Assembly: GCA_963695895.1 (NCBI GenBank)
Contig: CAVOIK010000022.1
Coordinates: forward strand, 70,485 to 134,484
DNA length: 64,000 nt
Direction: 5' to 3'
Source: an uncultured delta proteobacterium
GTDB lineage: Bacteria > Desulfobacterota > BSN033 > UBA1163
Numbering within the stretch: position 1 is the stretch's first letter; every line of letters begins with the position of its first letter. The notes beneath the pieces were generated by a model. It was not told the DNA's origin, searched no databases, and saw only the letters and a list, made by a program, of their open reading frames with translations. This document shows positions 11,890 to 43,587 of the stretch, one piece after another. Made by a program: the position numbers and the translations under genes.

Positions 11890-11896
11890 GGCCGAA

Positions 11897-13123: not shown

Positions 13124-13237
13124 GAGAATGATGGGGGATTGGAATATGGGAAGTCTGGGAGAAATCAAGAAATCTTTGAGACCCAACATTCCATTATTCC
13201 ATCGCTCCAGTATTCCATCTCCACAGAGGAGGGAGAA

Positions 13238-17502: not shown

Positions 17503-17518
17503 TGGCACAATACTTGCT
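17503..17518 (+). promoter_or_regulatory. sigma-54 (RpoN) -24/-12 promoter
   Basis: 'TGGCACaatacTTGCT' matches TGGCAC-N5-TTGCW exactly, with the canonical GG-to-GC spacing. It lies in a 590-nt ORF-free AT-rich spacer, 224 nt upstream of ATG 17742. Confidence 0.6.
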
Positions 17519-17741
17519 ATATAGCAGACTGTAATCATTAAGCAATAACCAGAAAGGGGGGGCCATGAGGCTTTGAAGGAGCGCACTATGGATTTGCGCG
17601 TGTAGGACAGTTAATTTGTCAGAGTTAGTCTATCAGGCTGAATGTCGGGGAAAGAGTGAAAAAATGAATGTGAGTATGAGTAAAACTGAGATAAAGAAAA
17701 GACCTATTAGAGGAGGGTCTAGCGTGAAAGGAGGGTTTGAA

Positions 17742-19782: not shown

Positions 19783-19840
19783 TCGCAGGGGAGGGCGGGG
19801 CATGATCCCGCCCTTTACGATCCCACTGTAATTGTCAGAC

Positions 19841-19880
19841 GAACAAGAGCAGGGCCGATTCGGCTCTGCTCTTGTTCTTT
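19841..19880 (+). terminator. rho-independent terminator after the collagen-like locus
   Basis: 17-bp stem 'gaacaagagcagggccg / cggctctgctcttgttc' with one mismatch, followed by 'ttt'. A smaller GGGCGGGG/CCCGCCC hairpin precedes it at 19793-19813. Confidence 0.7.
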
Positions 19881-19887
19881 CCAGTGC

Positions 19888-19917
19888 TTGACAAACATCT
19901 TGATATCATGCAATAAA
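19888..19917 (+). promoter_or_regulatory. candidate sigma-70 promoter for the GT-C/TPR gene
   Basis: A perfect -35 TTGACA (19888-19893) is followed 17-18 nt later by a weak -10 ('caataaa'), about 95 nt upstream of ATG 20012. Confidence 0.3.
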
Positions 19918-20011
19918 CCGACTAAGATTCGTACGCTTCGTCACTCAAAGATTATTTTACAAATGACTCTTCGATATATTTATCTCGGACCCTCAGTGGC
20001 GAGGCTCGGTA

Positions 20012-22153: not shown

Positions 22154-22182
22154 GCTCTTGCAGGAGGTGTCAACGATCGGCC

Positions 22183-23253: not shown

Positions 23254-23429
23254 AAGCAAGAAAGCGTCGCAGAGAAACCTGAAAGAGAAGAGAAAGGCCA
23301 ACACGAGAAGAAGAACAAGTAGGCCTGGAAGAGACTGTCTCATCAAAGGAAAGAAGTCTCTGAGGACTGGGATGTCGGGTTTAGAGTTTGTTTGAGCGCT
23401 GATCAGCTGATCCAAGGGAAGAAGCCCTT

Positions 23430-24554
23430 ATGAGCATGGCGTCTCTGCCACAAGATATGCAACCACAGGAGATAGACAGAACGATTGACTCCGTGTCTGG
23501 AAACGAAGGCAAAACGCCTATGGAGTTTAGATCGATAGCACTCAAAGGGCTTTTTATAATCGTCCTTTTCTATACGCTTTATTTTGCACGTGCCTTGGTC
23601 CTGCCGCTCACATTGGCATTGCTTTTCACCTTTCTTCTCAGACCGGTAGTTCGCGCTCTCAAAAGGGCCAGAATACCGGAGTCCGTAGGAGCCGCTCTGG
23701 TGCTCATCGTGTTGCTCGGGAGTGTGGGTTATGGTGCCGTCAAACTCTCTATACCTGCGGCCCAGTGGATTGACAGAGCACCGGAGAGTTTACGCCAAAT
23801 CGAGCTAAAAGTGAGCTTTTTACGTAAACCCATCGAGGGAGCAAACAAGGCGGTTGAAGAGTTGAAAAGGGTCACAAGAATGGGAGCTGAAAAGAAACCG
23901 GAAGTCGAAATAAAAACCCCGGGCATCACGGAGGCTGTTTTAACCGGCACAAGGGAAGTGATTGTAAAAAGTTCTGTGATGTTTATTCTCCTCTACTTCC
24001 TTCTAGCTTCTGGTGATCTGTTTTTAGGAAAGTTCATTAAGCTCTACCCGAAGCTCCACACGAAGAAAGAGATCCTGAAAATCATACGAGCCGTGGAACA
24101 CGAGATCTCACGATACCTTTACACAGTGACAGTGATCAATATCTGCACGGGGATTTCCCTGGGAATTGGCTTATACCTGATCGGTATGCCTAACGCTGCA
24201 CTCTGGGGAGTGATGGGAGGATGTCTTATCTTCCTTCCTTATCTTGGTCCTCTGATGGGCATTTCGATTGTTACTATTGTAGCCTTCTTGACCTTTGACA
24301 GTATCGGACGGGTATTGCTGGCGCCCGTAATCTATGTGGCTCTGGAAACCCTGCAGGGCCAAATCATCACACCGATGATACTCGGTTCACGTTTTGCACT
24401 CAATCCTATCGCCATCATTATCTGGCTAATCTTCTGGGGATGGATGTGGGGTATCATTGGTGCTTTGCTCGCCTTTCCTATGCTGACCGTTTTCAAGATC
24501 CTGTGCGATCATACCGAGTCCCTCTCTCCTGTTGGCAAGTTCCTCGCAAGATAA
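23430..24554 (+). CDS. AI-2E family transporter (PerM/UPF0118-type permease)
   Basis: 374-aa polytopic ORF. The C-terminal half ('LIFLPYLGPLMG', 'PIAIIIWLIFWGWMWGIIGALLAFP') is typical of the family. Confidence 0.7.
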   Translation: MSMASLPQDMQPQEIDRTIDSVSGNEGKTPMEFRSIALKGLFIIVLFYTLYFARALVLPLTLALLFTFLLRPVVRALKRARIPESVGAALVLIVLLGSVGYGAVKLSIPAAQWIDRAPESLRQIELKVSFLRKPIEGANKAVEELKRVTRMGAEKKPEVEIKTPGITEAVLTGTREVIVKSSVMFILLYFLLASGDLFLGKFIKLYPKLHTKKEILKIIRAVEHEISRYLYTVTVINICTGISLGIGLYLIGMPNAALWGVMGGCLIFLPYLGPLMGISIVTIVAFLTFDSIGRVLLAPVIYVALETLQGQIITPMILGSRFALNPIAIIIWLIFWGWMWGIIGALLAFPMLTVFKILCDHTESLSPVGKFLAR

Positions 24555-24734
24555 CTCCGGTAAACCATAGACATTCGGTGTCAGGCATTACTAATAGAGT
24601 ATTGGGTGGGTCAGAGCTTTTGAGGACAATTCTTGACTCTTGACAAAGAAAGACGTTATTGAGCAAAGCAAGGATATCGAGATCATTGCCCAAGGCGCCT
24701 TCGGAGACAGATATCCGCAGAAAGAGGAAGAGAT

Positions 24735-25801
24735 ATGAAAATGGGACTGAGGGAAAAAGCATCAAGTTTGCGTGTCGGAGCTTTCTTGATCTACGCATTG
24801 AGCTCTCTGCTTCTGCTGGGGACGGTGTCGGTGCAGGCGGCGGACCTGTCCCAGAACATGGCTGAATGTGCAGCGATCGAAAACGATGGAGAGAGACTGA
24901 AGTGTTATGACCAACTGGCCGGCCGCAACTCCAGGAAGATGGAGGAGGTCACCGAATCAAAGGAGAGCGAGTCAACAGAGAAAACTCCGAAAGGAATGGA
25001 GGAGGAATCCTACTTTTCGCGGCTCTGGGATTTGGACCGCGAGACCCGCGGAGGAAAATTCGCGATAAGGCCCCATCGATCCAATTACATCCTTCCCTTC
25101 ACATACAACTTCTCGCCGAATGCCGCTGCGGTACAAGAAGGCGACCCTGATAAGGATGTGATGCGATCCGAGGTCAAATTCCAGCTGAGTGTGAAGGTGA
25201 AACTCCTGGAGGATGTTCTCAATAAGGATATGGATCTGTGGTTCGCTTACACACAACAATCCTTCTGGCAATTGTACAACTTCGATGATTCCTCCCCATT
25301 CCGGGAGACAAACTACGAGCCTGAGTTGCTTCTCAACTTCAGAACCCGGTTTGATATCCTGGGGCTGACAGGACGCTTCTTCAATGTGGGTATGAACCAC
25401 CAGTCCAACGGCCAATCGGAACCCTTGTCGAGAAGCTGGAACCGTATCGTGGGGAGCGTAGGTCTCGAGAGAGAGACCGTTTTTCTCTTCTCGTGAAAGG
25501 ATGGTACCGCATTCCGGAAAGCAGCAAAGATGACGACAATCCCGATATCGAAAAATACCTGGGCTACGGGGAGATCTGGGGGTACTATTTCCTGAAGGAG
25601 CACAGGTTCGGAGCGATGCTCAGGAACAATTTCAGTGTTCACCATAACCGCGGCGCTTTGCAGGTTGAATGGAGTTTCCCACTCCTTGAATGGGTCAGTG
25701 GGTATGTGCAGTATTTTCTTGGATATGGCGAAAGCCTTCTGGACTACGACCACTCTGTGAACCGGATCGGCGTCGGCTTTATATTCAAGGAGTGGAATTG
25801 A
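24735..25801 (+). CDS. pldA: outer-membrane phospholipase A; one frameshift
   Basis: ORFs 24735..25496 and 25493..25801 together give a signal peptide, 'YILPFTYN', catalytic 'HQSNG', 'SRSWNR', 'DDNPDIEKYLGYGE' and 'YFLGYGESLLDY'. The frames join if the T5 run at 25480-25484 is T6 ('ETVF|SLLVKGWYRIP'). Confidence 0.88.
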
Positions 25802-25959
25802 AGCTCCACCCTGTGGGCGGGGAGCTTCGCTTTGGTTTTGTTTGGGTCGATGACAATGTAGTCGTTCCCTAATGCGTGGTATTTGTGAAAGTCATGTCGT
25901 ATAACGTCTCCGTCCAACGGAATCTTGTCTTTCTTGTGCCTTGTCTTCATATCAATCAT
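25744..25959 (-). pseudogene. 5' fragment of a diaminopimelate-epimerase-like gene
   Basis: The 71-aa ORF contains 'FHKYHALGNDYIVIDP', which resembles the DapF N-terminal 'F.K.HG.GNDF.v.D' motif. Similarity ends after ~40 aa, where the ORF runs into the REP hairpin and the pldA 3' end. Confidence 0.35.
25800..25830. repeat. REP-like hairpin element (short copy)
   Basis: 'GAAGCTCCaccctgtgggcGGGGAGCTTCgc'. The outer 8-bp arms are perfect, and the first bases overlap the pldA stop codon (tGAagctcc). Confidence 0.75.
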
Positions 25960-26383
25960 TAACGAGTTTAGATTGCTTAATCCCTCACATAACTTTGAGA
26001 CTTTGTCAACGAGGGAGGCGACGGTGGTTCACACGTAACCATACTGGAGGTGCGAGAAGACTGGTCTTCACTGTCCTTGGCCCTTTCAGGATGGCTCTCT
26101 TTCCGAAACTTTGGAACGCCGGGCGTCATAGGTTGGATAACCTTTCATGGAGGTAAGCGCACGAATTTACTGCCATTGGATCGCCCGAGTTTGACTGTAA
26201 GAGGTTCGGCTCCAAAGTTCTCCAAGAGAACCATCCTTGCGGGCCTGGACTTATTTTTGTCGGGATTTTATATTTTTTAACACCTTCTCAGCCGCCGGTG
26301 ACTGATTGCTTATCCCTCAAAAGTTTTAGTTGATTTTAGAATTTTTCCTGATAGAATAGAAACGCTCATATTGAAGGGAGGAT

Positions 26384-27559
26384 ATGTCCATGAAGATTCT
26401 GGTTTTAGGGGGATGCGGAATTCAGGGCAAGGCGATTCTTTATGATTTGTCGCGGAACCGTGACGTGAGTGAAGTGGTTTGCGCCGATGCTTTTCCGGAA
26501 AGCCTTTCGCCGTTTCGAAAGCATCTCGATATGAACAAAATCAAACTTGTCCACGTGGATGCCAAGGACAAGAAAATGCTTGTCTCTCTGATGAGGGAAA
26601 ACGTCCAGGTGGTCGTTGATGTTCTGCCAGCACAGTATTTGAAGCCAATCACGGAAGCAGCCATCGAGTCCGGGGTGGGTTTAGTGAATACGAATTACGG
26701 CTACGAGGTTCGCCCTCTCCAAAAGCAGGCAGTGGAAAAGGGGATAGCCATCATGCCTGAATGTGGACTCGACCCGGGGATCGACCTCGTCATCTACGGT
26801 CACGCAGTGAAGCAGTTTGACGAAGTTCATGTCCTTAACTCCTATTGTGGCGGACTTCCTGAGAAGAAAGCCTGCACGAATCCCATGAATTACAAGATCA
26901 GTTGGAACTGGGATATGGTTTTGAAATCCTCGAAGAGAGAAGCCGTGTTCATTAAGAACGGGAAAAAAGTGACCATTTCTGGGGATGATCAACAGGACAA
27001 TGACTTCATTCATGAGATCGACTTTCCAGGTCTTGGCCGGTTAGAGGCCCTTCCCAATGGTAACGCGGTTTTTTTTACGGATCTGCTGGGGGTTACGAAG
27101 ACCATCAAGGAAACCGGCCGTTACAGCCTCCGTTGGCCTGGGTGGTGTGCCTTCTGGCGGCCTTTGAAGAAATTCCACTTCCTGAGCGATCAGCCAGTGG
27201 CGGGGCTGCCCGGCGAGATTACGCCTCACCAGTTCATGGTGAAGTTCTTAGAACCTCAACTCCAATACAAGGAGGATGAGAAGGATTTGGCAGTGATGCA
27301 GAACGTCTTTGCCGGGCTGAAGGATGGGAAAAAGAAGAAGATAGTGGTTAACCTCCTAATCGAGCGGGATCTAAAGACCGGACTCATGGCCATGAGCTTG
27401 GGAGTCGGTTACACGGCCAGCATCGTGGCCTGCATGATTGCGAGCGGAGAGATCAAGGGCAAGGGGGTTTTGTCTCCGGCCACTGACATCCCCTATGATT
27501 CTTTCATGAAGCAGTTGAGTCAGAGAGGCATTGCCTTGGACGAGAAGATAGAGTTCTAG
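26384..27559 (+). CDS. saccharopine-dehydrogenase-family NAD(P) oxidoreductase
   Basis: 391-aa ORF with N-terminal Rossmann 'KILVLGGCGIQGKAILYDL'. The length and the mid-region 'MPECGLDPGIDLV' are typical of the Sacchrp_dh family. Confidence 0.65.
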   Translation: MSMKILVLGGCGIQGKAILYDLSRNRDVSEVVCADAFPESLSPFRKHLDMNKIKLVHVDAKDKKMLVSLMRENVQVVVDVLPAQYLKPITEAAIESGVGLVNTNYGYEVRPLQKQAVEKGIAIMPECGLDPGIDLVIYGHAVKQFDEVHVLNSYCGGLPEKKACTNPMNYKISWNWDMVLKSSKREAVFIKNGKKVTISGDDQQDNDFIHEIDFPGLGRLEALPNGNAVFFTDLLGVTKTIKETGRYSLRWPGWCAFWRPLKKFHFLSDQPVAGLPGEITPHQFMVKFLEPQLQYKEDEKDLAVMQNVFAGLKDGKKKKIVVNLLIERDLKTGLMAMSLGVGYTASIVACMIASGEIKGKGVLSPATDIPYDSFMKQLSQRGIALDEKIEF

Positions 27560-27747
27560 GGGCAAAGATGACCGGGACAGATTCCCATGGACAGGAGACC
27601 GTTTAGAGGAGCCATCGCGGTCGTTGAAAGGAGGTGAAGTCTTAAGGGGATCATGACGTTGGAAGGGTTTCGGATGGGTGAGGCAGTGTAATCCCACTGT
27701 CCTTCCATGGCACCCACATAGGATAAAAACAGAAAGGAGAAAGGAAC

Positions 27748-28542
27748 ATGAAGAAAACGTGGTGGATTTGGATGTTGGCAGTTGTTTTAGGATTGGGTTT
27801 CTACGGCGTGGCAACCGCAGATACCCTGGATGACATCGTCAAGAATGGCGAACTCAGGATTGTTTGCCAGACACAGGGAACCCCATTCAGTTTCATCGAT
27901 AAGAATGGCAAACGGACCGGATACGCTGTGGAAGTTGCCAACCTGATGGGAAAAGAAATGGGTGTCAAGGTGACGTTTCTTGATTATGACTGGGATGGTC
28001 TACTTCCTGCGCTTCTCTCAAAGAAGGGAGATGTTCTGGCAGCAGATATGACGCCCACGCTGGCACGTGCCTTGAAAGTCTCCTTTACCCAACCCTACTA
28101 TTACACGGGAAGTATCATTTTTACCAAGAAGGGGAGCAAGTTCAAGACGATCGAGCAGTGCAATAAGGAGAATGTGAATGTGGCTGTCCTGCTGGGTAGC
28201 ACAGGCGAAGCAGACGCCAAGAGGGTGCTGCCTAAGGCCCAACAAAAAGCGTACAAGGGAGGAGGCCCCCTTCTCATTAATGCCGTGATCGCAGGCCATG
28301 CAGACATTGGTGTCAATGATGATACCGCCGTGGTCGGCCAGATGGCAGAATTTCCTCCGGGAAGCATCGAGCTCCTTCCGGGTCAACTGTCCAAATTGCC
28401 TCTGGCCTTTGCCGTTCGCCCAGATGATGCACGGCTGGTCCAGTGGATCAATCTCTTCTTTGACTGGATCCAGACCGATGGGAGGCAGGAGCAATTGCTG
28501 AAATACTGGGTGAAGACCCTGGATTGGAAGAAAGATCATTAA
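27748..28542 (+). CDS. polar amino-acid ABC transporter, periplasmic binding protein (family 3)
   Basis: 264-aa ORF with a signal peptide, 'LRIVCQTQGTPFSFID', 'DWDGLLPALLSKKGDVLAADMT' and 'PLAFAVRPDD'. Confidence 0.8.
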   Translation: MKKTWWIWMLAVVLGLGFYGVATADTLDDIVKNGELRIVCQTQGTPFSFIDKNGKRTGYAVEVANLMGKEMGVKVTFLDYDWDGLLPALLSKKGDVLAADMTPTLARALKVSFTQPYYYTGSIIFTKKGSKFKTIEQCNKENVNVAVLLGSTGEADAKRVLPKAQQKAYKGGGPLLINAVIAGHADIGVNDDTAVVGQMAEFPPGSIELLPGQLSKLPLAFAVRPDDARLVQWINLFFDWIQTDGRQEQLLKYWVKTLDWKKDH

Positions 28543-28565
28543 ACCTCTGTGGAGTGGTAGGCGGC

Positions 28566-29234
28566 ATGCTGGAGTATTTTAACTTCCGGGTAATGTTTGA
28601 GTATTACCCCTTGTTCTTGAAGGGGTTTCTGTCAACGGGGTGGATTTCTTTCGTTTCCCTTTTCTTGAGCCTTCTTGTGGGAATCCTTTCCTGTGCAGGA
28701 CGTTTGTCCAAATCTCGTTTGTTTTCAACTCCGGCAGCCGCCTACATCGAAACAATCCGCTCCACTCCCCTTTTAGCGCAGATTTATTTCTTTTACTTTG
28801 GGCTTCCCAGCCTGGGATTCCGAGTTCCTGAGCTTCAGACAGGGATCCTGGCCTTGACGCTCAACAGCGGGGCCTACATGGCTGAGATCGTACGAGCTGG
28901 GATGCAGTCCGTCAGCACCGGACAGATCGAAGCAGGCACCTCGTCGGGTCTCAATTATTTTCAGCGCCTTCGTTTCATTATCTTGCCCCAAGCCATCGGG
29001 GTGACGATCCCACCTCTCCTTGGCCAGGCCATTGTTTTGGTGAAAGACAGTTCGCTCCTCTCGCTGATTTCCGTCATGGAGCTTACCCGAGCAGGCCAGA
29101 TTTTGACCAACGAGCGTTTTATGCCTGCAGAAGGTTTTTTTGCCGTGGCAGCTTTATACCTGGTTTTATACTTCTTACTTAAATCGCTTTCGACCTGGTG
29201 GCAGAAGAGATTGATTTTCCGACAGGCCGTGTAA
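28566..29234 (+). CDS. amino-acid ABC transporter permease (His/Glu/Gln/Arg/opine family)
   Basis: EAA-loop 'GQIEAGTSSGLNYFQRLRFIILPQA', with ATG at 28566. Confidence 0.8.
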   Translation: MLEYFNFRVMFEYYPLFLKGFLSTGWISFVSLFLSLLVGILSCAGRLSKSRLFSTPAAAYIETIRSTPLLAQIYFFYFGLPSLGFRVPELQTGILALTLNSGAYMAEIVRAGMQSVSTGQIEAGTSSGLNYFQRLRFIILPQAIGVTIPPLLGQAIVLVKDSSLLSLISVMELTRAGQILTNERFMPAEGFFAVAALYLVLYFLLKSLSTWWQKRLIFRQAV

Positions 29235-29256
29235 ATAGCAGTGTGGGAATGAGACG

Positions 29257-29925
29257 ATGTGGGGTTACTACACCCAGCAGTTAATCCATAGCATCCCTTT
29301 CTTCCTGAAAGGGCTCTGGATGACTATTGCAGTCTCCCTGTTGAGCCTGATTGGTGGCACCGTTATTGGGTTCTTTGCAGGGGTTGGCCGAGCCAGCCGA
29401 GCAAAGTGGCTTCGACGTCTTCTCTCCGTCTACGTGGATGCCATCCGCGGGACCCCCTTTCTGGTTCAGTTGTTCATCCTGTTTTTCATTCTGCCCGAGT
29501 GTGGAGTTCAAATCGAGGCATTTCCTGCTGCGGTGTTAGGCTTGACGATTTGTTCAGGGGCCTATATCTGTGAAATTTTTGCGAGCGGGATCGAGGCGGT
29601 TCAATGGGGGCAACGAGAAGCTGCTATTTCCACCGGCCTCAATCGTTATCAACAACTCCGTTTCATCATTTTACCTCAAGCCATGCGCACAATCCTTCCA
29701 CCGCTGGTGGGTCAGTACGTACTCTTGATCAAAGATTCGTCGGTGGTCTCCGTCATTGGAGTCCTCGATGTGACCCGAGTAGGCTGGCTGACAGTCCAAC
29801 GAATCCCGGAAGGCATCCTGGTCTTTGGGCTTGTGGGAATCCTCTATTTCATCATCTGTTATCCCCTCATCCATCTGGTCAATTATCTCGAAGCTCGAAT
29901 GACCGTTCAGAAATTCCGACTTTAG
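29257..29925 (+). CDS. amino-acid ABC transporter permease, second subunit
   Basis: 'GQREAAISTGLNRYQQLRFIILPQA'; paralogous to the preceding permease. Confidence 0.8.
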   Translation: MWGYYTQQLIHSIPFFLKGLWMTIAVSLLSLIGGTVIGFFAGVGRASRAKWLRRLLSVYVDAIRGTPFLVQLFILFFILPECGVQIEAFPAAVLGLTICSGAYICEIFASGIEAVQWGQREAAISTGLNRYQQLRFIILPQAMRTILPPLVGQYVLLIKDSSVVSVIGVLDVTRVGWLTVQRIPEGILVFGLVGILYFIICYPLIHLVNYLEARMTVQKFRL

Positions 29926-30022
29926 TCCTCTCCTCCGAGTCAAACGGACAGTCTCAACCAGGTTCAGATTGTTAGCTGGGAGTTTTGAGTGGTATCAAAG
30001 TCCTGAGAACCTTGGGGAGAGA

Positions 30023-31064
30023 TCAGGGCCTTTCCTTTTGCTGAAATTCGAGGCGGACGTAGGGGGAGGCCATGAGACGCATGAGCGAGTAGTAACCGAG
30101 CTGAAAGGCAAGGGTGTCGCCGACACGCGGTTTTGGGTCCATGTTCGTCACATCGACAAGGGTGTGATCACTTGAGGCCCGAACAATTGTGACCCCAGGG
30201 GATACAGGAAAGAGGAACTCCTGAGCCGTATCAAGCTGACCGAGGGAGAGCATGCCGAGCAGCCTGTCCCGCTTCTTAAGCTCGATCAGCTCAGCCTTAA
30301 GAACGAACGTGTCGTGGTGGAATCCTTGGATACGGCGCGGTCCGATCGATGAGGAAATACCCAGAAGAATCGCCGTGCCGATTCTAAGCTGATTCACACC
30401 TTGAATAGACTTATTTTCAAGGGTGAAATTACCAAAGACGTTGGTGGATCCTCCGGAAATGACCGGAAGGCGAAGGCCACATTCTTCCTCTATTTTTTTG
30501 ACCAAAGCGACAAGGCGTTGGAGAGATGTGAGCCTGAAATTCTCTTTCGCTATTGTACGCGAAATACGCACCGAGCCCCTGTAACGTCAACTCCTTCATT
30601 CCTGAAACTTCGCGGCACACCCCTGGCACATCCTCCGGTTGGAACCCTTCGCGCCCCGTATCGAGATCGACCATCAGGATGACAGAATGATGTTTGCGGG
30701 TCCTCGAGGCTTCGGTTGACAGAGCCCGAAGAACATCGAGATCTACATTCAAGCTCGTGTCTGCTCGGGCAATACACTCGCCCACTTCACTTAAGGCAGG
30801 CGACCGAAGAAGGACCATAGGCACTTCAATGCCTGCCTTCTGCATTCGGGCAATGTTCTCGAGCCTGGAGTCCCCAAGCATCTTGATACCCCCTGCGATC
30901 ATCGCCCGTGCCACTTCTGGTGTACCGCACACCCCCTTGGTCACACCGACAACCTCGATACCCAGGGGACGGCAGACGGAAAGAGTCCTACGGGCATTGT
31001 CTGTAATCTTCGCAAGGTCTATGGTGAGGTGGAGTGTGGCCATAAGAGATATTCCTCGCTTCAA
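30023..31064 (-). CDS. alanine-racemase-fold PLP enzyme (ornithine/amino-acid racemase-like, YhfX-type); one frameshift
   Basis: ORFs 30429..31064 and 30023..30571 are parts of one gene. 'GIEVVGVTKGVCG' carries the candidate PLP lysine, and 'ISGGSTN' is also present. The frame changes within about 30545-30570. Confidence 0.6.
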
Positions 31065-31100
31065 GAGGAGCTGTCATATTTGCTCAGTCGAGCCGTGACC

Positions 31101-31206
31101 GGCAGGTGCCCCGCAAGCCCCACCCTTCAGGGTGGGGTCAAGGGGCGCCCTACCAAATAAAAATACCTTTCCGGGAAGCCCAGCCCTTTAGGGCGGGGAG
31201 CTTCAC
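31101..31206 (+). repeat. composite REP/MITE-like element (~105 nt, two hairpins)
   Basis: 'ggcaGGTGCCCCgcaagCCCCACCCttcaGGGTGGGGtcaAGGGGCgcc..A-rich..acctttCCGGGAAGCccaGCCCtttaGGGCGGGGAGCTTCAC'. It has the same layout as 35991-36113. Confidence 0.8.
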
Positions 31207-31287
31207 AAATAGGATATGCGTTCTGTAGACAGGTCCCATGAGCAGATGGTGAGCGAGGTAGGTCGCAGAGTTCAAATCCCTGTAAGG

Positions 31288-32016
31288 CTAATGCGTCAAG
31301 ATTTTGCTCAAAAAGTATTTGGTTCGTTCGTTCTTCGGGTTCCTGAAAAACTCAGCGGGGGACGCGCTCTCGATCAGCCGGCCTTCATCCATGAAGATGA
31401 TGCGATGCGCCACTTCCTTTGCGAACCCCATCTCATGCGTGACGACGATCATGGTCATCCCCTCATGGGCCAGGTTGCGCATGACATCCAGAACCTCATT
31501 AATCATTTCGGGGTCGAGGGCGGAGGTGGGCTCGTCGAAGAGCATGATCTTCGGCCGCATGGCCAACCCTCGGGCAATGGCAACGCGCTGCTGCTGCCCG
31601 CCAGAGAGCTGGGCCGGGTAGGAATCGGCTTTCTCAGGGATGCCAACCTTTTTCAGGATCTCTCGTCCCAAATCTTCCGCTTCCCCCCGCTTCATTTTCC
31701 TCACCTGGATCGGAGCAAGCGTCACATTCTCTAAGGCGGTCATATGGGGATAAAGATTGAATTGTTGGAAGACAAAACCGATTTCTGCCCGAAGGCGGGT
31801 GAGGTTGGTCCGACTATCCTTCAGGGACATATTATCGACAACAATTTCTCCTTCCTGAATAGGTTCAAGCCTGTTGATACACCGTATCAAGGTGCTTTTC
31901 CCCGAGCCGCTGGGACCACAGATCACCACCACCTCGCCAGATTCTATATGGAGATCAATATCCTTGAGAACATGGAGCTTGTCGAACCATTTGTTTACTT
32001 TCTTGAAAGTGATCAT
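31288..32016 (-). CDS. amino-acid ABC transporter ATP-binding protein (GlnQ-like)
   Basis: Walker A 'GPSGSGKST', signature '[15 protein letters not shown]' and Walker B '[12 protein letters not shown]'. Confidence 0.9.
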
Positions 32017-32162
32017 TGCCTCGCTCTCCTTTGGAGACCGTCCTATCTTAACAAGTTAGGAAAATATGTCAAGAAATCTTCCGAAATCCCTGATCCTCAA
32101 TCCCCGGTGCCCGTATCTCAATACATTTGCCTTAGGGACTGACGGCGGGTTACCATGAACAT

Positions 32163-33221
32163 GTGGATAGTCTCACCCATACGCTCACAGGGGCAGTCAT
32201 TGGCAAGGCGATAGAGGACGAGGAGGTTAAGCCCTGGGGAACGGTAGCGGGCCTGGTGGCGGGGTTCTTTCCCGACATGGACTTTGTCCTCGGTCTAATT
32301 AACCGTCAATTCTATCTCCAGTACCATCGGGACTTCACCCATTCTTTCCTCCTTCTCCCATTTTATGCGCTCCTTCTCAGTTGGCTTTTTACTAAAATCA
32401 CAAGGCGGCCTCATCTCTGGAGTTATTACAAAATCTGTCTTCTGGTCCTCATCAGCCATGTGCTTCTCGACCTCTTCACCTCTTATGGAACGATGGTCTT
32501 TGCCCCATTCTCCGATCATCGATACGCCTGGGACCTTACCTTTATTGTTGATCTGATCTTCTCGGGAATCCTCTTCATCCCTTGGATTGTTAGCCTGTTG
32601 TGGAGAAAGAGGGCTGCTTGGATTTGCCGAGGATCTTTGATGCTCCTGACCGTCTATATTCTCTTCTGTGCGGTTCAACACCACCGAGCCATGAGCACGA
32701 CCAGACAGTTCGCTGCGAATCTGAACGAGGAGGTTATAAAAATAGCGTCCCTGCCTCAACCCCTCTCTCCGTTTCGGTGGTCCAACTACGTCGAGACTCA
32801 AGAAAACGTCTATCAGGGATTCGTCGATCTCCTCGCCAAAGGATCCTCTGCGCAGAAAAATCCGGGCACAGAGGCTGACTTTGATGGTTCAGGCTTTTTT
32901 GGAAGATTCAGGAGATGGAAACTGATGGAGGGACGCTACCATTCGGCCTCGAGTATTCGTTACTCCTCGTATCAAAAGAATGACGGCTCTCCCTGGGTGA
33001 AGAAAGCTATGGCCACGGAGGGAGCTAAGTTTTACTACTGGTTTGCGCGATTTCCTGTAGCCAAATTGGTGAACTCGAGCAATGGAACCCACCGCATTGA
33101 ATTCACGGATGTGAGATTCTTCCTTCCCGGAATTCGGATGCCTTTCTCGTATTACATCGAGCTGGATGATGCTGGCAATGTCAGCTCAGAAGGGTTTGTG
33201 CAGAATGGGAAAAGGAGCTGA
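32163..33221 (+). CDS. membrane-bound metal-dependent hydrolase (YdjM/YbcI, DUF457-like) with a C-terminal extension
   Basis: GTG start, N-terminus 'MDSLTHTLTGAVIGKA', about 5 TM segments with conserved His residues ('FTHSFLL', 'SHVLLDLFTSYG'), then a ~170-aa soluble tail. Confidence 0.6.
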   Translation: MDSLTHTLTGAVIGKAIEDEEVKPWGTVAGLVAGFFPDMDFVLGLINRQFYLQYHRDFTHSFLLLPFYALLLSWLFTKITRRPHLWSYYKICLLVLISHVLLDLFTSYGTMVFAPFSDHRYAWDLTFIVDLIFSGILFIPWIVSLLWRKRAAWICRGSLMLLTVYILFCAVQHHRAMSTTRQFAANLNEEVIKIASLPQPLSPFRWSNYVETQENVYQGFVDLLAKGSSAQKNPGTEADFDGSGFFGRFRRWKLMEGRYHSASSIRYSSYQKNDGSPWVKKAMATEGAKFYYWFARFPVAKLVNSSNGTHRIEFTDVRFFLPGIRMPFSYYIELDDAGNVSSEGFVQNGKRS

Positions 33222-33252: not shown

Positions 33253-35961
33253 TTACGGTGATGGCTGGATCGTAAAGGGTAAGTCGCTCGCATCATTGCC
33301 GATAGCATTCCCCCGATCGTCCAATAGGGTGACTTTCACCTTACATTTTTTCTGCTCTTTTGAAGCCGACGGAACAGTCCAATCGCGTGTTCCCGGGTTT
33401 GTGTCAAGGGTCTCAATGGAAATCCAGGTCGTTCCATCTTTTGTATAAGATAACTTCACTTTGCTCACAGACCTGATAGTATCATAGGTAACCCAGGTGA
33501 TGGTCTCCGTCGCTCCCGGAGTAAGGGTTTCTCCTCCGTTGGGATAGGTCAACTTCACCACCTCAATCCTAAAGGGATCATCCGACGTATCAGCGCCAAC
33601 CTGCCCTCCTGATAAATCGTAGAGGATCACCTTGACCAAGCACGACTTCTTGTTTCCGTTGGGCGCAGGGACGGTCCAGTCATGCGTCCCGGGATTGCCA
33701 TCCATGGGTTCAATGAGAGTCCAGGAAGACCCTCCATCCTTGCTATAGAACAATTTTACCTCTCGCTACATCCCTGACAGTCGCTTGGGTTGTCCAGGTA
33801 ATGGTTTGGGTTGTGCCCGCCTCCCAGACCTCGCCCCCGTTGGGCGACGTCAACCGGGTGACCTCTATCGTAAAGGCACTGTCTGATTTATCCATTCCCC
33901 TCCTTTTCCCTTCACTGTCAACCCCTTTTACCCGAATGAGGCAGTTTCTCAGGTTCTTCGTCGGCTTGGGCACGGTCCAGTTATGGGTGGTCTCGGTCAA
34001 CTCTTTCGCGATCAACTTCCATGTACTTCCTCCATCAGTAGAATACTCGACCGTATACGTAAGGTCAGAGGCCAGATCTCCGATCGCCTCCCATTCGATC
34101 GTATGGGTCGATCCAGAAGGAATGATCTCGTCCTCCATTGGGTGACAGAACATTCAAGTCGACCGTGTAAGACATCACCTCGTTTGAAAACGCTGAACCG
34201 CCCGCACCATTATAAGCCCAAACGGCATAATAGTAGATCGTATTTGCCGTAACCTCCGTATCAAGATAACTCGTCACGTCGGTCCCCACCGTGGCGATCG
34301 TTTCATACGTGCCCCGGACACCCGCCTTCCTCTTTATCTTGAATCCCGTCTCGTTATCGGATCGGTCCTGCCAAGAGAGGGAAATCTTACTCTCGTTCTT
34401 GACGGTCGCTGCAAGACCGGTGGGCCCATCAGGGAACAACCGCTTTGTTCGGAACTTTTGGATCCGATTGTTATTTGTATCGGTGACAAAGGCGTTTCCA
34501 GATGCATTCACGGCGACGCCCGAAGGAGAATCAAATTGGCCATCTCCCGTCCCGGCAGCTCCCCAATGTGTGATATACTTGCCTCCTCCGTCAAACACCT
34601 GAACGCGCTCATTTCCCTGATCCACCACATAGACGTACCCGGAGGAATCCGTGCTAACCCCAACGGGAAAACTGAACTGTCCTGTCTCCGTGCCCGAGGA
34701 ACCCCACGTGAGGAGGAAATTGCCGTCTTCGTCGAATTTCTGGATCCGATGATTGTCTCTGTCCGCCACATACACATGGCCCCCACCAATCAAGAGCGAT
34801 GCCTGATGGGGAGTTAAACTCTCCGTCGTGGGAACCGGAAGAGCCCCAGGCGGACACAAAGGTAACCGAGGTTTTTGTGACACGAAATGTTTGGATCCTT
34901 TGATTCCCTTGATCCACCACGTAAACATGGCCTGACGAGTTTACGGCGACAGCGACAGGTAAGTTAAACTGTCCTTCGGCAATACCATAGTAACCCCAAG
35001 CAATCACAAAATTGCCAAGGCTATCGAATTTCTGGATCCGATGATTTCTTTGGTCTGCAACGTAGATGTTTCCAGAGGAGTCAATGGCGACCCCGGCAGG
35101 TCTGTTGAATTGCCCGCTCAATTCCCCCAAATACCCAAGCTTACCAAGATACTCACCCCGACCGCTGAATTCCTGGATTCGATGGTTTTCCTCGTCAGCA
35201 ACAAACACGTTACCAGAACTATCCACAGCAATCCCCGTGGGGAAATTGAACTGCCCGTTTCCAAACCCACCAGTACCCCACTTGTCCTTAAAACGGTAGT
35301 TGTAATCACTCACCCTGTTTCTTCGGATGGGTGTGTAGGTTTCTAATTGTGCCCAAGTCCACTCACGGTATCTTGCCTTAGGGGATGTTTGTTCCATCGC
35401 CAGAATCCCACTCCCATCGGAAAGGTAGCTGTGGAATAGTAGGATATGATCCGTCCTGACAAAGGCATCACCCGGCAAGAGGCCGCTCGCGTCGCTTCCC
35501 GCCTCACCGAGGCTATGGACATAATCATCGGAGGACGGAACATAATGCGTCCCGCAACTGACGTTCGTGCTATTGCGGGCATCGCAGAGGAAATCCTCGG
35601 CTGTAAATCGCTTGGGTAATTTCCAGCTGATGCTGACGAACCCTCCGCTGTCATTCCCATATTCTGTGGTTCCGCCTGAGGTTTCATTCATGGCCTCATA
35701 GAACTCACCCCAATTCCTCTGCGGAGTTCCTTCACAGTAAGCGATCCCGTGATAGACCTCATCGGAGGAAAAACTATGCCCACAGTTCGTGATGCTGTTC
35801 ATAGGGCTCCACGAGAAATCGATCATCTCATCTGCAATTCTCACGATCGTTTCCCCGCTCATCGCATCCCACGTATCTCCAGTCCACGACCAACCAGCGG
35901 AAGGTGCCAAAAAGATCCCGATGCAGTGCAGAACAATCACGAAGGCTACAATCTTCTTCAT
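33253..35961 (-). pseudogene. large secreted NHL-repeat / FN3 / triple beta-sandwich-repeat protein; three apparent frameshifts (may be sequencing errors)
   Basis: ORFs 34654..36048, 34065..34928, 33743..34153 and 33253..33753 are colinear pieces of one gene. ATG 35961 ('MKKIVAFVIVLHCIGIFLAPSAGW') follows RBS aaggag. There are at least 8 NHL blades ('GQFNxPxGIAVDSSGNVYVAD..NHRIQKF'), an FN3-like segment ('PTGLAATVKNESKISLSWQD...YYYAVWAYN') and three ~85-aa modules ('SPNGGE.W..G....I.W...DGG..W..I...W.VP'). The frame breaks lie near 34781-34792, 34120-34130 and 33757-33765. Confidence 0.75.
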
Positions 35962-35990
35962 GGGGTGCTCCTTTTCTTTATCTCCTGGCC

Positions 35991-36113
35991 GGCAAGTGCC
36001 CCGAAAGATCCACCCTTTAGGGTGGGGTTGAGGGGCACAATATAACACAATATAAAAGATAAAAGGAAATTACCTTCCCGGGAAGCGCCGCCCTTCAGGG
36101 CGGGGAGCTTTAC
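35991..36113 (+). repeat. composite REP/MITE-like element (~120 nt, two hairpins)
   Basis: 'ggcaAGTGCCCCgaaagatCCACCCtttaGGGTGGggttgaGGGGCAC..AT-rich..accttCCCGGGAAGCgccGCCCttcaGGGCGGGGAGCTTTAC'. It lies upstream of the NHL gene start. Confidence 0.8.
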
Positions 36114-37465: not shown

Positions 37466-38494
37466 ATGAAGTGCAATTTGATTCAGCAGGGTTATCCGCA
37501 GGGGAGTTGCCTCGTCCAGGTCGATCAGGGGAAAGCCCTGGCATGCGAAGCAACCATCAAACAGACCGACAACGGGGTTCTGCGACGCATCTCTGCGGTT
37601 CACCTCTCCCGTCCAGAAAATTATCTCTCCATTTACCAGTCGGGCTGTAACTTCTCGTGTCGAAAATGTCATTCTTGGAATTTTTCCAAAGTCGCAACGG
37701 GAAATTGGTGGTCGCCGCCGATGTGCTTGAAGGCCTGCAAAGAATACGAGAGGGAGGTGACTTTGCGTGAGCCACGACAGACGGGCCACAGCGTTTCATG
37801 CCCACGAATGCCTGCCGATGCTGCGGGGCTTGCGTGATGCATGGGAAGCGCTCTCCCCTCTGCCCCAAGGTGATCCGGAAAAAAGAGATTCTCCTCAGCC
37901 CTCAGGGATGGGGTCCGGCCCGCAATATCGTGGCTTTCACGGGAGGAGATCTCACCTGTTGCCCGGAGTTTTACGTTGAATGCGCCCGTCTCATTAAGGC
38001 GGAGACGAACCTCTGGGTGCTGATCGAAACGAATGGCTACGGTCTCACACCTCAGAACCTCGACGCGTTGAAGGAAGCAGGGGTGGATTCCTTCTGGCTC
38101 GACATCAAGGCCTTCGATGAAGGAGACCACAAGTGGTTGACGGGATGCTTCAATCGAAACATCCTCAGACTTCCTGAAATCATCCTGAAGAAGGGGTTCG
38201 TTCTCGAGGTTCTTTCTCTTTATATCCCAGGGCTGGTGGAGATTCCCCAGCTCAAGAAGATTGCTCAGCTCCTTTTTGACGTGAATCCCGATCCCTTTCA
38301 CGATTCTGGGCTTCTTCCCTGAATACCAGATGAAGCGATACAAGAGTCCGAAAGTCTCACAGATGGTGGATGCCTTCATGGAAGTCAAGGCCGTCGGGCT
38401 AAGAAATGTGAGGCTTGGCAATACAGGTATCTTTGTTTCGACCGAGCAAGATCATCATCTGCTGAAGGAGAAAGTGGGAGCAGGAAATTATTAG
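37466..38494 (+). pseudogene. radical SAM protein (PflA/PflX-like activase family) with a Cys-rich insert; at least 3 apparent frameshifts
   Basis: The cluster 'SGCNFSCRKCHSW' lies in ORF 37466. The reading continues through frames 37767 ('DRRATAFHAHEC') and 37798 ('CRCCGACVMHG...AFTGGDLTCCPEFY...ETNGYG'). After about 38290-38300 it moves to a third frame ('PFTILGFFPEYQMKRYKSP...GNTGIF') ending at TAG 38492-38494. Confidence 0.6.
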
Positions 38495-38596: not shown

Positions 38597-39925
38597 ATGG
38601 AAAAGAAAATCCTCATTGTGGATGATGAGGAGAGGGTGGTTGAATCGATCGCAGGGGTCCTGGAGGATGAAGGATTCCGGGTTGCCAGGGCGAGGAGCGG
38701 AGAAGAGGCTGTTGACGTCTTCGATCGGGAAAAACCGGATGTCACGCTCCTGGATATCTGGATGCCAGGCATGGATGGCATGGAGGTATTGAAGCGCTTA
38801 AAACGGATGGCCCCCGAATCCCAAGTGATTATGGTTTCGGGCCATGCGACCATTTCAACCGCCATGACCGCTGTGAAACTGGGGGCCTTCGATTTTCTCG
38901 AGAAGCCTCTCTCCATCGATGTGCTGCTCATGACCATCCATCGAGCCCTTGAACATCAGAAGGAATGGCTTACATCGAGACCCTCGGAAGAGGTGACTTC
39001 GCAAAGCGCGTTGCCTCTCAGCTTTCCGTCATCCACTTCCCAGGAGAGTGCTCGCCCTGCTCCGAAGGTTTCACCGAGACGGGGAAGTTCCCTCTTGCCT
39101 CAGCGAACTGTCAAGCGGAGCGTCGTTGTATACGGAACGGGACTCCATTCCGGGATGAAAACAGGGCTCCTTCTCCAGCCCCTTCCCCCCAATAGTGGCG
39201 TCCTTTTTGGAAATATCTCGTCCGATGAAGTGGTCCCTGCCCATCTCGACTATGTTCAGACGACCGAGTATGCCACGGCACTCAAGAAGGGTCAAGCCGT
39301 AGCCAAGACCGTGGAGCACTTCATGGCGGTCCTTCATGCCTATCGCATTACGAACCTGATGATTAAGATGATCGAAGAGATTCCGATCATGGACGGTTCG
39401 GCGTTGGAATTCTGTAAGATGATTGAGGAAGCAGGCATCGAAGAGCAGGAAGAGCGAGTCGATGAACTGGTGATCAAACGGAGATTCGAAATTGTTCGGC
39501 GGGATAAGACGTTGACCATCGAACCTTCGGATGGGTTTTCTGTCCACTATGAACTGGATTACCCCTCTCCCATTGGACGACAATCCTTCGATTTTGTCCT
39601 GGACAATGAAGAGACCTTTAAGAATCAGATTGCCCCCGCACGGACCTTCGGTTTTTTGAAAGATATAGAAATGCTGGAACGAATGGGGTTAGGCAGCGGA
39701 GGAAGGATTCACAATTTCATCCTGGTCGATGACGAGCGAGTCGTCAACACGGAACTGCGATTTCCAGACGAGTTTGCCCGCCACAAGGTTCTCGATCTCA
39801 TCGGAGATCTCTACCTTCTCAATCGTCCGATCCGGGGGAAGGTGACCGCTCACCTGACTGGGCACACGGAAAATATTGATCTTCTCAAAAAGATTCAGGA
39901 AGAGATACGGGATGGAGATCGCTGA
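38597..39925 (+). CDS. response-regulator receiver domain fused to a full-length LpxC (UDP-3-O-acyl-GlcNAc deacetylase) domain
   Basis: REC domain: 'KILIVDDE', 'DVTLLDIWMPGMDG', 'IMVSGH', 'DFLEKP', so the acid pocket, phospho-Asp, Ser/Thr and Lys are all present. A ~55-aa Ser/Pro-rich linker follows. LpxC domain: 'QRTVKRSVVVYGTGLHSG', 'TVEHFMAVL' (the E78/H79 equivalents), 'IPIMDGSA', 'ARTFGF', 'DEFARHKVLDLIGDL' (H238/D242) and 'LTGHTEN' (H265). Confidence 0.85.
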   Translation: MEKKILIVDDEERVVESIAGVLEDEGFRVARARSGEEAVDVFDREKPDVTLLDIWMPGMDGMEVLKRLKRMAPESQVIMVSGHATISTAMTAVKLGAFDFLEKPLSIDVLLMTIHRALEHQKEWLTSRPSEEVTSQSALPLSFPSSTSQESARPAPKVSPRRGSSLLPQRTVKRSVVVYGTGLHSGMKTGLLLQPLPPNSGVLFGNISSDEVVPAHLDYVQTTEYATALKKGQAVAKTVEHFMAVLHAYRITNLMIKMIEEIPIMDGSALEFCKMIEEAGIEEQEERVDELVIKRRFEIVRRDKTLTIEPSDGFSVHYELDYPSPIGRQSFDFVLDNEETFKNQIAPARTFGFLKDIEMLERMGLGSGGRIHNFILVDDERVVNTELRFPDEFARHKVLDLIGDLYLLNRPIRGKVTAHLTGHTENIDLLKKIQEEIRDGDR

Positions 39926-39955: not shown

Positions 39956-40354
39956 ATGGCTGAAGAGGAATATCGACCCCCGATGAAGGAATTTTTGGAC
40001 ATGCTCGCGGATCTTTTGTCGGAAAAATATTTTGAACGAATGGACGACCGGATGAAGAAGATTCCTGAGCTGCGACGGTTGATTACCGCCAAAGAAGCGA
40101 GTCAGTATCTGAGTCTTGCGACGGATACGGTCTACCGGATGGCCGCGATGAAGAAACTTCCCTACCTTAAAATCGGAGACCGAGTCCTTTTCGATCTAAA
40201 GGCCCTCGATCACTGGATTGAGAGACACTTGGTGAGGGAGAAAGAGATCAAGAGGCAGGAGTTGAAAATTGAGATCGAAAAGGGGAAGGCGAGCACCAAA
40301 TCTCCCAAGGAATCTGACCTGCTCGATCTTCTCAAGAGGAAGGGAAAAGAGTAA
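39956..40354 (+). CDS. small helix-turn-helix DNA-binding protein (excisionase/MerR-like HTH_17 type)
   Basis: 'ITAKEASQYLSLATDTVYRMAAMKKLPYLKIGDRVLFDLKALDHWI' followed by a Lys/Glu-rich tail. It begins 30 nt after the REC-LpxC stop. Confidence 0.6.
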   Translation: MAEEEYRPPMKEFLDMLADLLSEKYFERMDDRMKKIPELRRLITAKEASQYLSLATDTVYRMAAMKKLPYLKIGDRVLFDLKALDHWIERHLVREKEIKRQELKIEIEKGKASTKSPKESDLLDLLKRKGKE

Positions 40355-42783: not shown

Positions 42784-43587
42784 TTACCTTGCGAGCCATC
42801 CACCATCAACGGCAATCGTGTAACCGTTAATGTAGTTCGAGGCTTCCGAAGCAAGGAAAACAGCAATGCCTTTCAGATCATCCGGTATACCCCATCTTCC
42901 AGCGGGTATCCTTTCCAAGATCTCCTTGCTTCTTACCGGGTCTGCGCGCAATGGGGCCGTATTATCGGTCGCCATATACCCGGGGGCTATCGCATTCACA
43001 TTGATATTGTGTTTCGCCCACTCATTGGCCATGTTCGGTTCTAACACCGTCAGGCCCATCACCAACTGGCAGGTCTTCAACACCTTGGGATGGATAAACT
43101 GATTGATCGTTCTGACATTGCTCTTCTCAGGAGCACCCAGATGGAGGTGTTGAACATCTTTCATCGAAAGCTTCATTAGAGGATAAGCTGCGTGGGCAGG
43201 GGCACTGTTGAAATAGAATTTTGCCGGACTCTTTCCGTCAGGACTCTTAAAGGTCACCTCCTTGGAACCCATACCGATATAGAGGCACTCCCTACTCTCC
43301 AACACGTGCTCTTTTCCATCCACGGAGATCATTCCTTTCGATCCAATGTTGATGATCCCCATCTCCCTTCTCTGGAGAAAAAAATCGACGCCCAACTCCT
43401 TCGTCACCTTGAGCTCCACCTCCTGGTCTGCCGGGCAGGCTCCTCCAACGATGATGCGGTCCACATGGCTATAAACCATGTTCACTTTGTTCCTCTCGAA
43501 AAGTCCTTCTACTAAGAAGTGTTTCCTTAATGCCTCGGTATCTAACAGCTTCATCTGGTCAGGGTGAACCGCATATCGAATATCCAT
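42784..43587 (-). pseudogene. in-frame deletion chimera: KduI N-terminal ~185 aa fused to KduD C-terminal ~82 aa
   Basis: aa 1-185 match KduI ('MVYSHVDRIIVGG', 'FFLQRREMGIINIG', 'FYFNSAPAH', 'LKTCQLVMGLTVLEPN'). From aa 186, 'MANEWAKHNINVNAIAPGYMATDNT...IPAGRWG...NGYTIAVDGGWLAR' is the KduD/SDR C-terminus. The junction is at 43032/43033. Confidence 0.8.

Follow-up and report, generated by a model that had tools for sequence, protein, structure and literature searches.

A receiver domain fused to LpxC in an uncultured delta proteobacterium, and its possible control by an NtrY-type sensor kinase

LpxC catalyzes the flux-controlling, essential and drug-targeted step in the synthesis of outer-membrane lipid A. 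In the stretch of DNA considered here, 64,000 nucleotides from an uncultured delta proteobacterium (the window: GenBank assembly GCA_963695895.1, contig CAVOIK010000022.1, positions 70,485 to 134,484), LpxC is encoded as the C-terminal part of a polypeptide that begins with a response-regulator receiver domain (REC). This lineage probably controls the synthesis of lipid A directly, by way of a membrane sensor kinase. I consider it rather likely, judging from the sequences of the fusion and its relatives, that the protein is a lipid A deacetylase under the post-translational control of an NtrY-type kinase encoded elsewhere in the genome. It would work in the manner of CheB-type regulators with enzymatic output, by analogy, with an output domain not described before, and direct control by a sensor kinase is proposed as a mode of regulating lipid A synthesis not described so far. 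The first-pass annotation of the window had already suggested a direct link between a two-component phosphorelay and lipid A flux. That idea is strengthened by the NtrX-type character of the receiver, by relatives that are fusions of NtrX to LpxC, by NtrY kinases adjoining some of them, and by clusters in which lpxC, ntrY and ntrX lie together.

The fusion protein and its two active sites

The gene and its parts are listed here in the coordinates of the window.

38597..39925, + strand: REC::LpxC fusion gene, 442 amino acids (aa) plus stop, one open reading frame (Pfam Response_reg and LpxC; TIGR00325)
38609..38938, + strand: REC domain, residues 5-114, NtrX type (Pfam PF00072; NCBIfam NF051870)
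38753..38755, + strand: codon (GAT) of the predicted phospho-acceptor Asp53
38957..39100, + strand: flexible Ser/Pro-rich linker, residues 121-168 (composition; AlphaFold2 confidence)
39101..39898, + strand: LpxC (UDP-3-O-acyl-GlcNAc deacetylase) domain, residues 169-434 (Pfam PF03331)

The reading frame runs unbroken from an ATG at 38597 to a stop codon at 39923-39925. It is a single gene, as the first-pass annotation had it, and the length of 443 aa given there includes the stop codon. An in-frame TTG at 38576 is a possible alternative start that would add 7 aa. The Pfam search recommended at the time finds both domains: Response_reg over residues 5-114 (E 6.7e-32; 110.4 bits against a cut-off of 30.2) and LpxC over residues 169-434, covering positions 1-267 of the 268 in the model (E 6.4e-86; 288.6 bits against a cut-off of 27). 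The protein also passes TIGR00325, the equivalog model for lpxC, with 259.5 bits at a cut-off of 187.25. Among solved structures, its C-terminal part is closest to the LpxC enzymes of P. aeruginosa, E. coli and A. aeolicus, and its N-terminal part to the receivers of the NtrC-family proteins NtrC4, NtrC1 and NtrX. It belongs to both the LpxC family and the receiver-domain superfamily.

The receiver had been called complete and CheY-like, and so it is. It has the quintet of residues typical of such domains, the acidic pair D9/D10 (in VDDE), D53 (LLDIWMPGMDG), S81 (MVSGH) and K103 (EKP), and in the AlphaFold2 model its five strand-helix units make up a (beta/alpha)5 fold. The claim of a full-length LpxC with its zinc and catalytic residues holds as well. 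Aligned to the enzymes of P. aeruginosa and E. coli, E240/H241 (VEHF) fall at E. coli E78/H79, H396/D400 (RHKVLD) at H238/D242, and H423 (TGHT) at H265. The zinc ligands of the E. coli enzyme (H79, H238, D242) correspond to H241, H396 and D400, its catalytic residues E78, H265, D246 and T191 to E240, H423, D404 and T350, and its K239 to K397. The E. coli sequence used for this numbering bears the expected residues at the expected numbers, and the alignment with P. aeruginosa gives the same motif pairs. The fusion is predicted to encode a catalytically competent LpxC, the deacetylase of the committed step. It stops directly past the catalytic core, lacking the C-terminal degron of the E. coli enzyme.

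Between the domains lies a linker with 12 Ser and 7 Pro among its 48 residues. The first-pass annotation was right about this composition and put the length somewhat too high, at about 55 aa; AlphaFold2 confidence (pLDDT, the predicted local distance difference test) falls below 50 at residues 128-163, indicating a disordered linker of about 45 aa. The model as a whole has a mean pLDDT of 83, about 90 in REC, and a predicted template modelling score (pTM) of 0.76.

Pfam finds neither a sigma54 AAA+ domain nor HTH_8 in the protein. The CheB model NF001965 matches the REC part only (72 bits against a cut-off of 293), there being no methylesterase domain. A natural fusion of LpxC is already known in the bifunctional LpxC-FabZ (NF009667), and the window protein matches the LpxC part of that model. 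There the partner is a C-terminal dehydratase from the same metabolic neighbourhood, a FabZ part that the window protein lacks.

The architecture recurs. One homologue (P0001) is 97% identical to the window protein over 100% of its length, and more than 100 other full-length fusions are 73-78% identical to it. The best 120 protein clusters in a collection of 5.8 billion proteins all carry both Pfam domains, at 73-98% identity and full coverage, and they derive from assemblies deposited at NCBI, ENA, JGI and Logan. The phyletic spread, which the first-pass annotation had wished to see checked, takes in 26 species-representative genomes with a full-length fusion, some just 46-52% identical to that of the window; by name they are mostly metagenome-assembled genomes of Syntrophaceae, Thermodesulfobacteriota or Deltaproteobacteria. 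Another homologue (P0157) lies on a complete chromosome of 2.68 Mb (AP019861.1, labelled 'Spirochaetota bacterium').

Conservation was judged from 272 retrieved fusions, with identities down to 36-45%: 143 short forms, such as the window protein, 127 long forms and 2 intermediate ones. The phospho-acceptor Asp is kept in 270 of the 272, the two residues of the acidic pair in 269 and 271, Ser/Thr81 in 271 and Lys103 in 271, and W55, P57, G61, G82, H83 and P104 of REC are retained nearly as strictly. In the LpxC domain (E. coli numbering), E78, H79, H238, K239, D242, D246 and H265 are invariant. The zinc ligands, whose lack of conservation would by the first-pass annotation have refuted its idea, are among these. 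T191 and F192 are present in 271 fusions, and H19 and K143 in about 90-97%; together these are the zinc, catalytic and UDP- or acyl-contact residues tested. Only one position conserved in stand-alone LpxC is altered in the fusions, a conservative change of V217 to L, and eight positions of the domain form a signature specific to the fusions. The gap between the domains ranges from 21 to 66 aa among the short-form homologues.

Descent from NtrX and linkage to NtrY

The receiver is most like those of NtrX. Its best NCBIfam match is the NtrX model NF051870, at 126.6 bits against a cut-off of 600, through the REC part only. In species-representative genomes, the nearest REC domains (50-57% identical) belong to NtrX-like regulators of 450-480 aa with the order REC, Sigma54_activat, AAA_lid, HTH_8. 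Each of their genes lies directly 3' of one for a kinase of about 750 aa (NtrY_N, HAMP, PAS, HisKA, HATPase_c), making NtrY/NtrX pairs. The REC consensus of the fusions is common to NtrX receivers, and no REC residue was found that is specific to fusions (present in at least 80% of fusions and at most 30% of NtrX).

The link to NtrX is not confined to the receiver. Many of the closest LpxC relatives found by an exhaustive profile search are proteins of 650-740 aa, annotated as NtrX by JGI and as LpxC by NCBI, in which an LpxC part 50-61% identical to that of the window follows REC, a weak Sigma54_activat match and AAA_lid, often with a remnant of HTH_8 just before LpxC. The two intermediate forms have REC, HTH_8 and LpxC. 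The best 150 representatives at 50% identity include 19 short and 15 long forms, along with the 2 intermediate ones. The activator parts of the long forms have decayed: GAFTGA and the Walker B Glu are found in none of the 127, Walker A persists in 113, and the arginine-finger motif is replaced in every common variant. With GAFTGA, the Walker B Glu and the arginine finger gone, no fusion is predicted to be capable of acting as a sigma54 activator. By its sequence, the window protein is a descendant of NtrX and not a functional member of the NtrC/NtrX family.

A side observation concerns the 127 long forms of about 730 aa, of which P0121 (locus L081, 5264-7468) is one: each has what looks like a pseudo-ATPase scaffold between REC and LpxC.

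A neighbor-joining tree of LpxC domains groups all fusions together, apart from the stand-alone enzymes, in 157 of 200 bootstraps. Within this clade, the three forms are mixed. An intermediate form (P0128) pairs with a long one (P0137) and a short form (P0138) with another long one (P0125), both in 200 of 200 bootstraps. Short and long forms being interleaved in this way, the AAA+ module must have been lost more than once, at least twice independently as judged by these well-supported pairs, and REC was retained through every one of the losses. The window protein would be the trimmed end state of an NtrX::LpxC fusion. The tree also makes the window's clade sister to the long form P0121, a grouping found in 33 of 200 bootstraps and not claimed here. 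Four apparently stand-alone enzymes fall within the fusion clade. Two were looked up: P0187 is a truncated gene call on a contig of 925 bp, and P0166 is an artefact of a frameshifted contig with a split kinase gene just upstream. No genuine stand-alone member was found in examining these two; P0159 and P0193 were not looked up.

Then there is the evidence from neighbouring genes. At four loci a gene for an NtrY-type kinase, with NtrY_N, HAMP, PAS, HisKA and HATPase_c, ends within a few nucleotides of the start of the fusion. At L016, whose short-form fusion shares 52% identity with the window protein, kinase gene and fusion start overlap by 4 nucleotides. The order is DUF2905, ntrY, fusion at L083 (short form P0123, 55% identical) and DUF4390, ntrY, fusion at L082 (intermediate) and L081 (the long form P0121). 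The incomplete loci L087 and L089 show what looks like the same arrangement of kinase and fusion. The DUF4390 gene was considered as an equivalent of NtrZ, the periplasmic regulator of NtrY in Caulobacter, and dropped, since the paper describing NtrZ makes no mention of DUF4390 and says that NtrZ has no conserved domain.

Unfused relatives present the same parts separately. At 17 loci lpxC, sometimes DUF4390, ntrY and ntrX lie on one strand, in Desulfuromonadales, Geobacteraceae and other Thermodesulfobacteriota. Fifteen of these loci were found through the pattern of the REC domain alone (L027-L037, L039-L041, L046) and two by looking up kinases: L086, and L093 in the complete genome of the cultured Desulfuromonas versatilis (AP024355.1). 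The comparison of L081 with L086 is the most telling. The two share the downstream genes for MM_CoA_mutase (methylmalonyl-CoA mutase) and YchF, and their kinases are 65% identical. At L086 lpxC is a gene of its own, lying upstream, and ntrX looks functional; L081 lacks both, and the fusion occupies the position of ntrX. At this locus the fusion appears to stand in for both lpxC and ntrX, and the comparison is the best available, if indirect, indication that the fusion has taken over from the ordinary lpxC and is not an additional copy. L083 likewise lacks the stand-alone lpxC of L086 where the fusion is present. At L082 there is no separate lpxC or ntrX beside ntrY, a less direct parallel, as this locus shares only DUF4390 with L086.

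A proposed mechanism and its rivals

I propose that ntrX and lpxC were fused in frame directly after an ntrY gene, to give a protein with REC, sigma54 AAA+, HTH_8 and LpxC. The parts needed for activating transcription would then have decayed and been deleted more than once, leaving REC, a flexible linker and LpxC. In the present genome, an NtrY-family sensor kinase, its gene outside the window, would phosphorylate or dephosphorylate Asp53. The phosphorylation state of REC would alter the output of LpxC through intramolecular contact with the enzyme domain, as in CheB, and lipid A flux would respond to a signal from the envelope or from redox state with no transcription in between. Because REC was kept through each loss of AAA+, regulation would be independent of the assembly of an AAA+ ring and should act through REC. 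The predicted structure is consistent with this: by a rough yardstick of my own, in which freely placed domains give a pTM of about 0.65 and confidently docked ones about 0.8, the value of 0.76 suggests a defined contact between REC and LpxC.

The sign of the regulation is harder to guess. With low confidence, and by analogy, I suppose that phosphorylation activates the enzyme, which would keep the logic of an activator acting on lpxC. On this side is the NtrC-type regulator DVU2934 of D. vulgaris, which acts on lpxC as an activator (PMC3333781). On the other is NtrYX of alphaproteobacteria, which lowers lpxC mRNA (PMC7240162, PMC12444477).

Several considerations weigh against the mechanism proposed. 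The first is the kinase. The first-pass annotation had regarded the protein as an orphan, and indeed tblastn finds no NtrY-like kinase in the 64 kb of the window, where other histidine-kinase families were not screened. Nor is there an NtrY-like kinase within 10 kb of the fusion in the 23 loci of the close clade, so NtrY is named as the partner of the window protein by homology. A search with homologues of the L081 kinase led to the unfused L086 and to L087, at a contig end, and assigned no kinase to a fusion-bearing genome of the window's clade. The second is the history of the kinases linked to fusions. They are not monophyletic, that of L081 grouping with the kinase of the unfused L086 (65% identical, as against 46-48% to the kinases at other fusions), and so the history cannot be one of simple vertical descent. 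It suggests either horizontal transfer of the fusion gene to existing ntrY loci, where it took the place of ntrX and lpxC, or strong differences in the rate of change. The third is the divergence of the enzyme. LpxC domains of fusions are 54-64% identical among themselves and 37-41% identical to every canonical LpxC, that of L086 included, and a stem branch of such length might also belong to a diverged paralogue. The fusion is the only LpxC in the window, as had been claimed (tblastn finds no second LpxC, and no second REC), and it may be the only one in the genome, but a second, canonical lpxC elsewhere may also exist. Fourth, LpxC works as a monomer, which leaves the dimerization type of REC activation without an obvious target. 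Last, no sigma54 promoter (at least 7 of 11 consensus positions, with GG-N10-GC) was found within 300 nucleotides upstream of the canonical lpxC in the 17 unfused clusters, so that the case for an ancestral transcriptional link in the phylum comes entirely from D. vulgaris. The same scan gave no match upstream of the fusion gene in the window.

How do these ideas sit with what is known of NtrY and NtrX? The likeness extends to the type of the receiver, to the full NtrX domain order in the long relatives, and to the NtrY gene upstream in several lineages. The difference is that the window protein lacks AAA+ and the helix-turn-helix and that its output is an enzyme, not transcription. NtrYX represses transcription of lpxC in R. 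sphaeroides and C. crescentus and is tied to the cell envelope (PMC7240162, PMC12444477). In alphaproteobacteria this effect is indirect, within a large regulon, and according to a 2025 review, NtrYX and ChvGI do not specifically modulate LpxC (PMC12444477). In the fusion, control would be direct and specific. A nearer parallel may lie within the phylum. D. vulgaris has a two-component system dedicated to lpxC, DVU2931/DVU2934, in which the regulator has this gene as its single target, and in S. fumaroxidans the orthologous operon is immediately preceded by lpxC (PMC3333781). The clusters of Desulfuromonadales, Geobacteraceae and Syntrophobacter resemble it in placing lpxC beside an operon of kinase and regulator. 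The proteins of that system are separate and control is transcriptional. DVU2934 may be an orthologue of the NtrX-like regulators considered here.

All this raises the possibility of a dedicated circuit from sensor to enzyme, made of NtrY and an NtrX-derived receiver joined to LpxC, in which control of LpxC is the ancestral core function of NtrYX. I offer this tentatively, as a proposal that falls a little short of an even bet. If it is true, the fusion and the widespread lpxC-ntrY-ntrX cluster would together be a 'Rosetta stone' for a system that has long been enigmatic. NtrY and NtrX, whose signal and core function are debated, would be tied to lipid A synthesis both physically and genomically, and the tie would account for the envelope and lpxC phenotypes of alphaproteobacterial ntrYX mutants.

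In architecture and proposed mechanism, though no further, the fusion resembles CheB, with an N-terminal REC, a flexible linker and a C-terminal enzyme on one polypeptide. Before phosphorylation, the REC of CheB is packed against the enzyme domain and inhibits it, and phosphorylation lifts this inhibition. The outputs of CheB and of other regulators with enzymatic outputs (PleD/WspR, RpfG, RssB) serve signalling, whereas the fusion ends in an essential zinc amidase of lipid A biosynthesis.

Other bacteria regulate the same control point, the committed step, through proteolysis by FtsH/LapB/YejM in E. coli, activation by MurA in P. aeruginosa and possibly Lon in alphaproteobacteria. Too much or too little LpxC is harmful, and a mechanistic understanding of its regulation is limited to a few proteobacteria, namely E. 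coli and P. aeruginosa, the rest being described as 'emerging' (PMC12444477). The fusion differs in having no C-terminal degron for FtsH and in its built-in phospho-receiver, presumably driven by a sensor kinase. An LpxC with its own phospho-switch would be a third, mechanistically distinct answer to the same problem, and as a single polypeptide the fusion would lend itself to testing the regulation of LpxC in vitro. The long forms would furthermore be a clear example of the chassis of a sigma54 activator turned into a regulator of an enzyme and then repeatedly trimmed. Full-text searches on LpxC with response regulator, receiver, NtrX or output domain turned up no description of the REC-LpxC architecture, and neither 'fusion' nor 'receiver' occurs in the text of the 2025 review on lipid A regulation (PMC12444477).

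An alternative view, the main rival, is that REC governs the amount or the location of LpxC rather than its catalysis. It might serve as a signal for degradation or docking, set by phosphorylation, that hands the enzyme over to an AAA+ protease, along the lines of FtsH/LapB control in E. coli or of adaptors of the RssB/CpdR type; or else it might tether the enzyme to NtrY at the inner membrane. Characterized species typically control LpxC by proteolysis, with FtsH/LapB as the agent in E. coli and perhaps Lon in alphaproteobacteria (PMC12444477), and the fusion lacks the E. coli degron. Some short fusions without a kinase have genes for proteases or chaperones nearby: one for a ClpB-like protein that overlaps the fusion start (L084, 1715-4693), one upstream for a protein with the Lon substrate-binding domain (L090, 9015-9812) and one for ClpX (L091, 7913-9130). 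The long forms, moreover, retain an AAA+ scaffold that would bind ATP without hydrolysing it. Against this, such neighbours vary from lineage to lineage and are absent from the conserved neighbourhood of the window, and no adaptor-like feature was identified in the fusion. The pTM of 0.76 favours a defined contact between REC and LpxC, which is compatible with allostery and with control of stability or location too. I regard this alternative as unlikely, though deserving of serious attention.

Suppose instead that the fusion is a diverged paralogue of LpxC, acting on some other acetylated substrate or serving as a UDP-sugar sensor or phosphate sink in NtrY signalling, while a canonical lpxC makes lipid A. 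The long stem branch and the eight signature positions are what one would expect of such a protein. It is difficult to reconcile with a score above the equivalog cut-off, with zinc, catalytic and UDP/acyl-contact residues essentially invariant across the 272 fusions, and with a single conservative change among the positions that stand-alone enzymes conserve. The loci also speak against it: the stand-alone lpxC of L086 is missing from L081 and L083, where the fusion sits (and, less directly, from L082), and no genuine stand-alone member of the fusion clade came to light in the two candidates that were looked up. This makes a paralogue quite unlikely, somewhat more so than control of amount or location.

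A receiver left over from NtrX, without a role in signalling and attached to a constitutive enzyme, is very improbable. To be sure, the AAA+ and helix-turn-helix parts of NtrX clearly decayed after the fusion, and there is no kinase near the gene in the window's clade. The quintet, however, is kept in 269-271 of 272 diverged fusions while the motifs of the adjoining AAA+ module were lost in 127 of 127, and REC survived each independent deletion of that module; a vestigial domain would not be expected to last in this way.

Finally, that the single reading frame is an artefact of assembly or of a frameshift joining two genes, a thought prompted by several probably frameshifted genes in the window (described below), is effectively refuted, since the same unbroken architecture recurs in independent assemblies from four sources, in 26 species-representative genomes and on a complete chromosome.

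The neighbourhood in the window

I return to control of LpxC by NtrY as the preferred reading and turn to the genes that surround the fusion in the window, chief among them the following.

39956..40354, + strand: gene for an HTH_17 (excisionase-type) DNA-binding protein, 132 aa (Pfam PF12728)
37466..38494, + strand: radical SAM gene, a conserved upstream neighbour, broken by two frame changes
11765-13123: FtsA
13139-14446: FtsZ
14568-16283: radical SAM gene after ftsZ

The HTH_17 gene begins 30 nucleotides past the stop of the fusion and is probably co-transcribed with it. It lies directly downstream of the fusion in 22 of the 23 close-clade loci (L001-L015, L019-L022, L025, L026) and is absent from more distant fusion loci. 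The conserved neighbourhood of this clade consists of genes for a Zn-ribbon protein, a lipoprotein, Sir2, a radical SAM protein of 342 aa, sometimes an aldehyde dehydrogenase, the fusion and HTH_17. An intact orthologue of the 342-aa radical SAM protein is encoded directly upstream of the fusion in 18 loci. The copy in the window is read in frame 0, then +2, then 0 again; either it is a pseudogene or indel errors made during assembly have broken it. A scan for sigma70 promoters and terminators around the fusion gene gave nothing above the shuffled expectation, and the 64 kb contain no tRNA genes and no Rfam family at the gathering threshold.

A radical SAM gene does follow ftsZ, as the first-pass annotation had noted. 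The distance of 24 kb given there between ftsZ and the fusion is true of the window and is not a trait of the clade: in six relatives with loci that reach ftsZ (three of them only its 3' end), the fusion lies 6-10 kb downstream. The greater distance reflects some 15 kb (17152-32163) that related genomes lack, between the genes for an alpha/beta hydrolase and YdjM. The extra genes encode a TPR membrane protein, a family 2 glycosyltransferase (GT2) with GtrA, an AI-2E transporter, an outer-membrane phospholipase A1 (24735-25496), a saccharopine dehydrogenase and an amino-acid ABC transporter, a content related to the envelope.

Within this extra DNA, at 17616-19470, a reading frame with a signal peptide is followed by collagen-like repeats (G-x-T and G-P-T) that can be read in several frames, with tandem-repeat periods of 9, 18, 27, 36 and 54 and a local GC content of 0.58. 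This is probably one gene for a collagen-like surface protein, broken by frameshifts. Two further regions of the window, both on the - strand, look like assembly frameshifts or chimeras: a pair of overlapping NHL-repeat reading frames at 34065-36048, and at 42784-43587 a single reading frame that joins an N-terminal part of KduI to a C-terminal part of a short-chain dehydrogenase.

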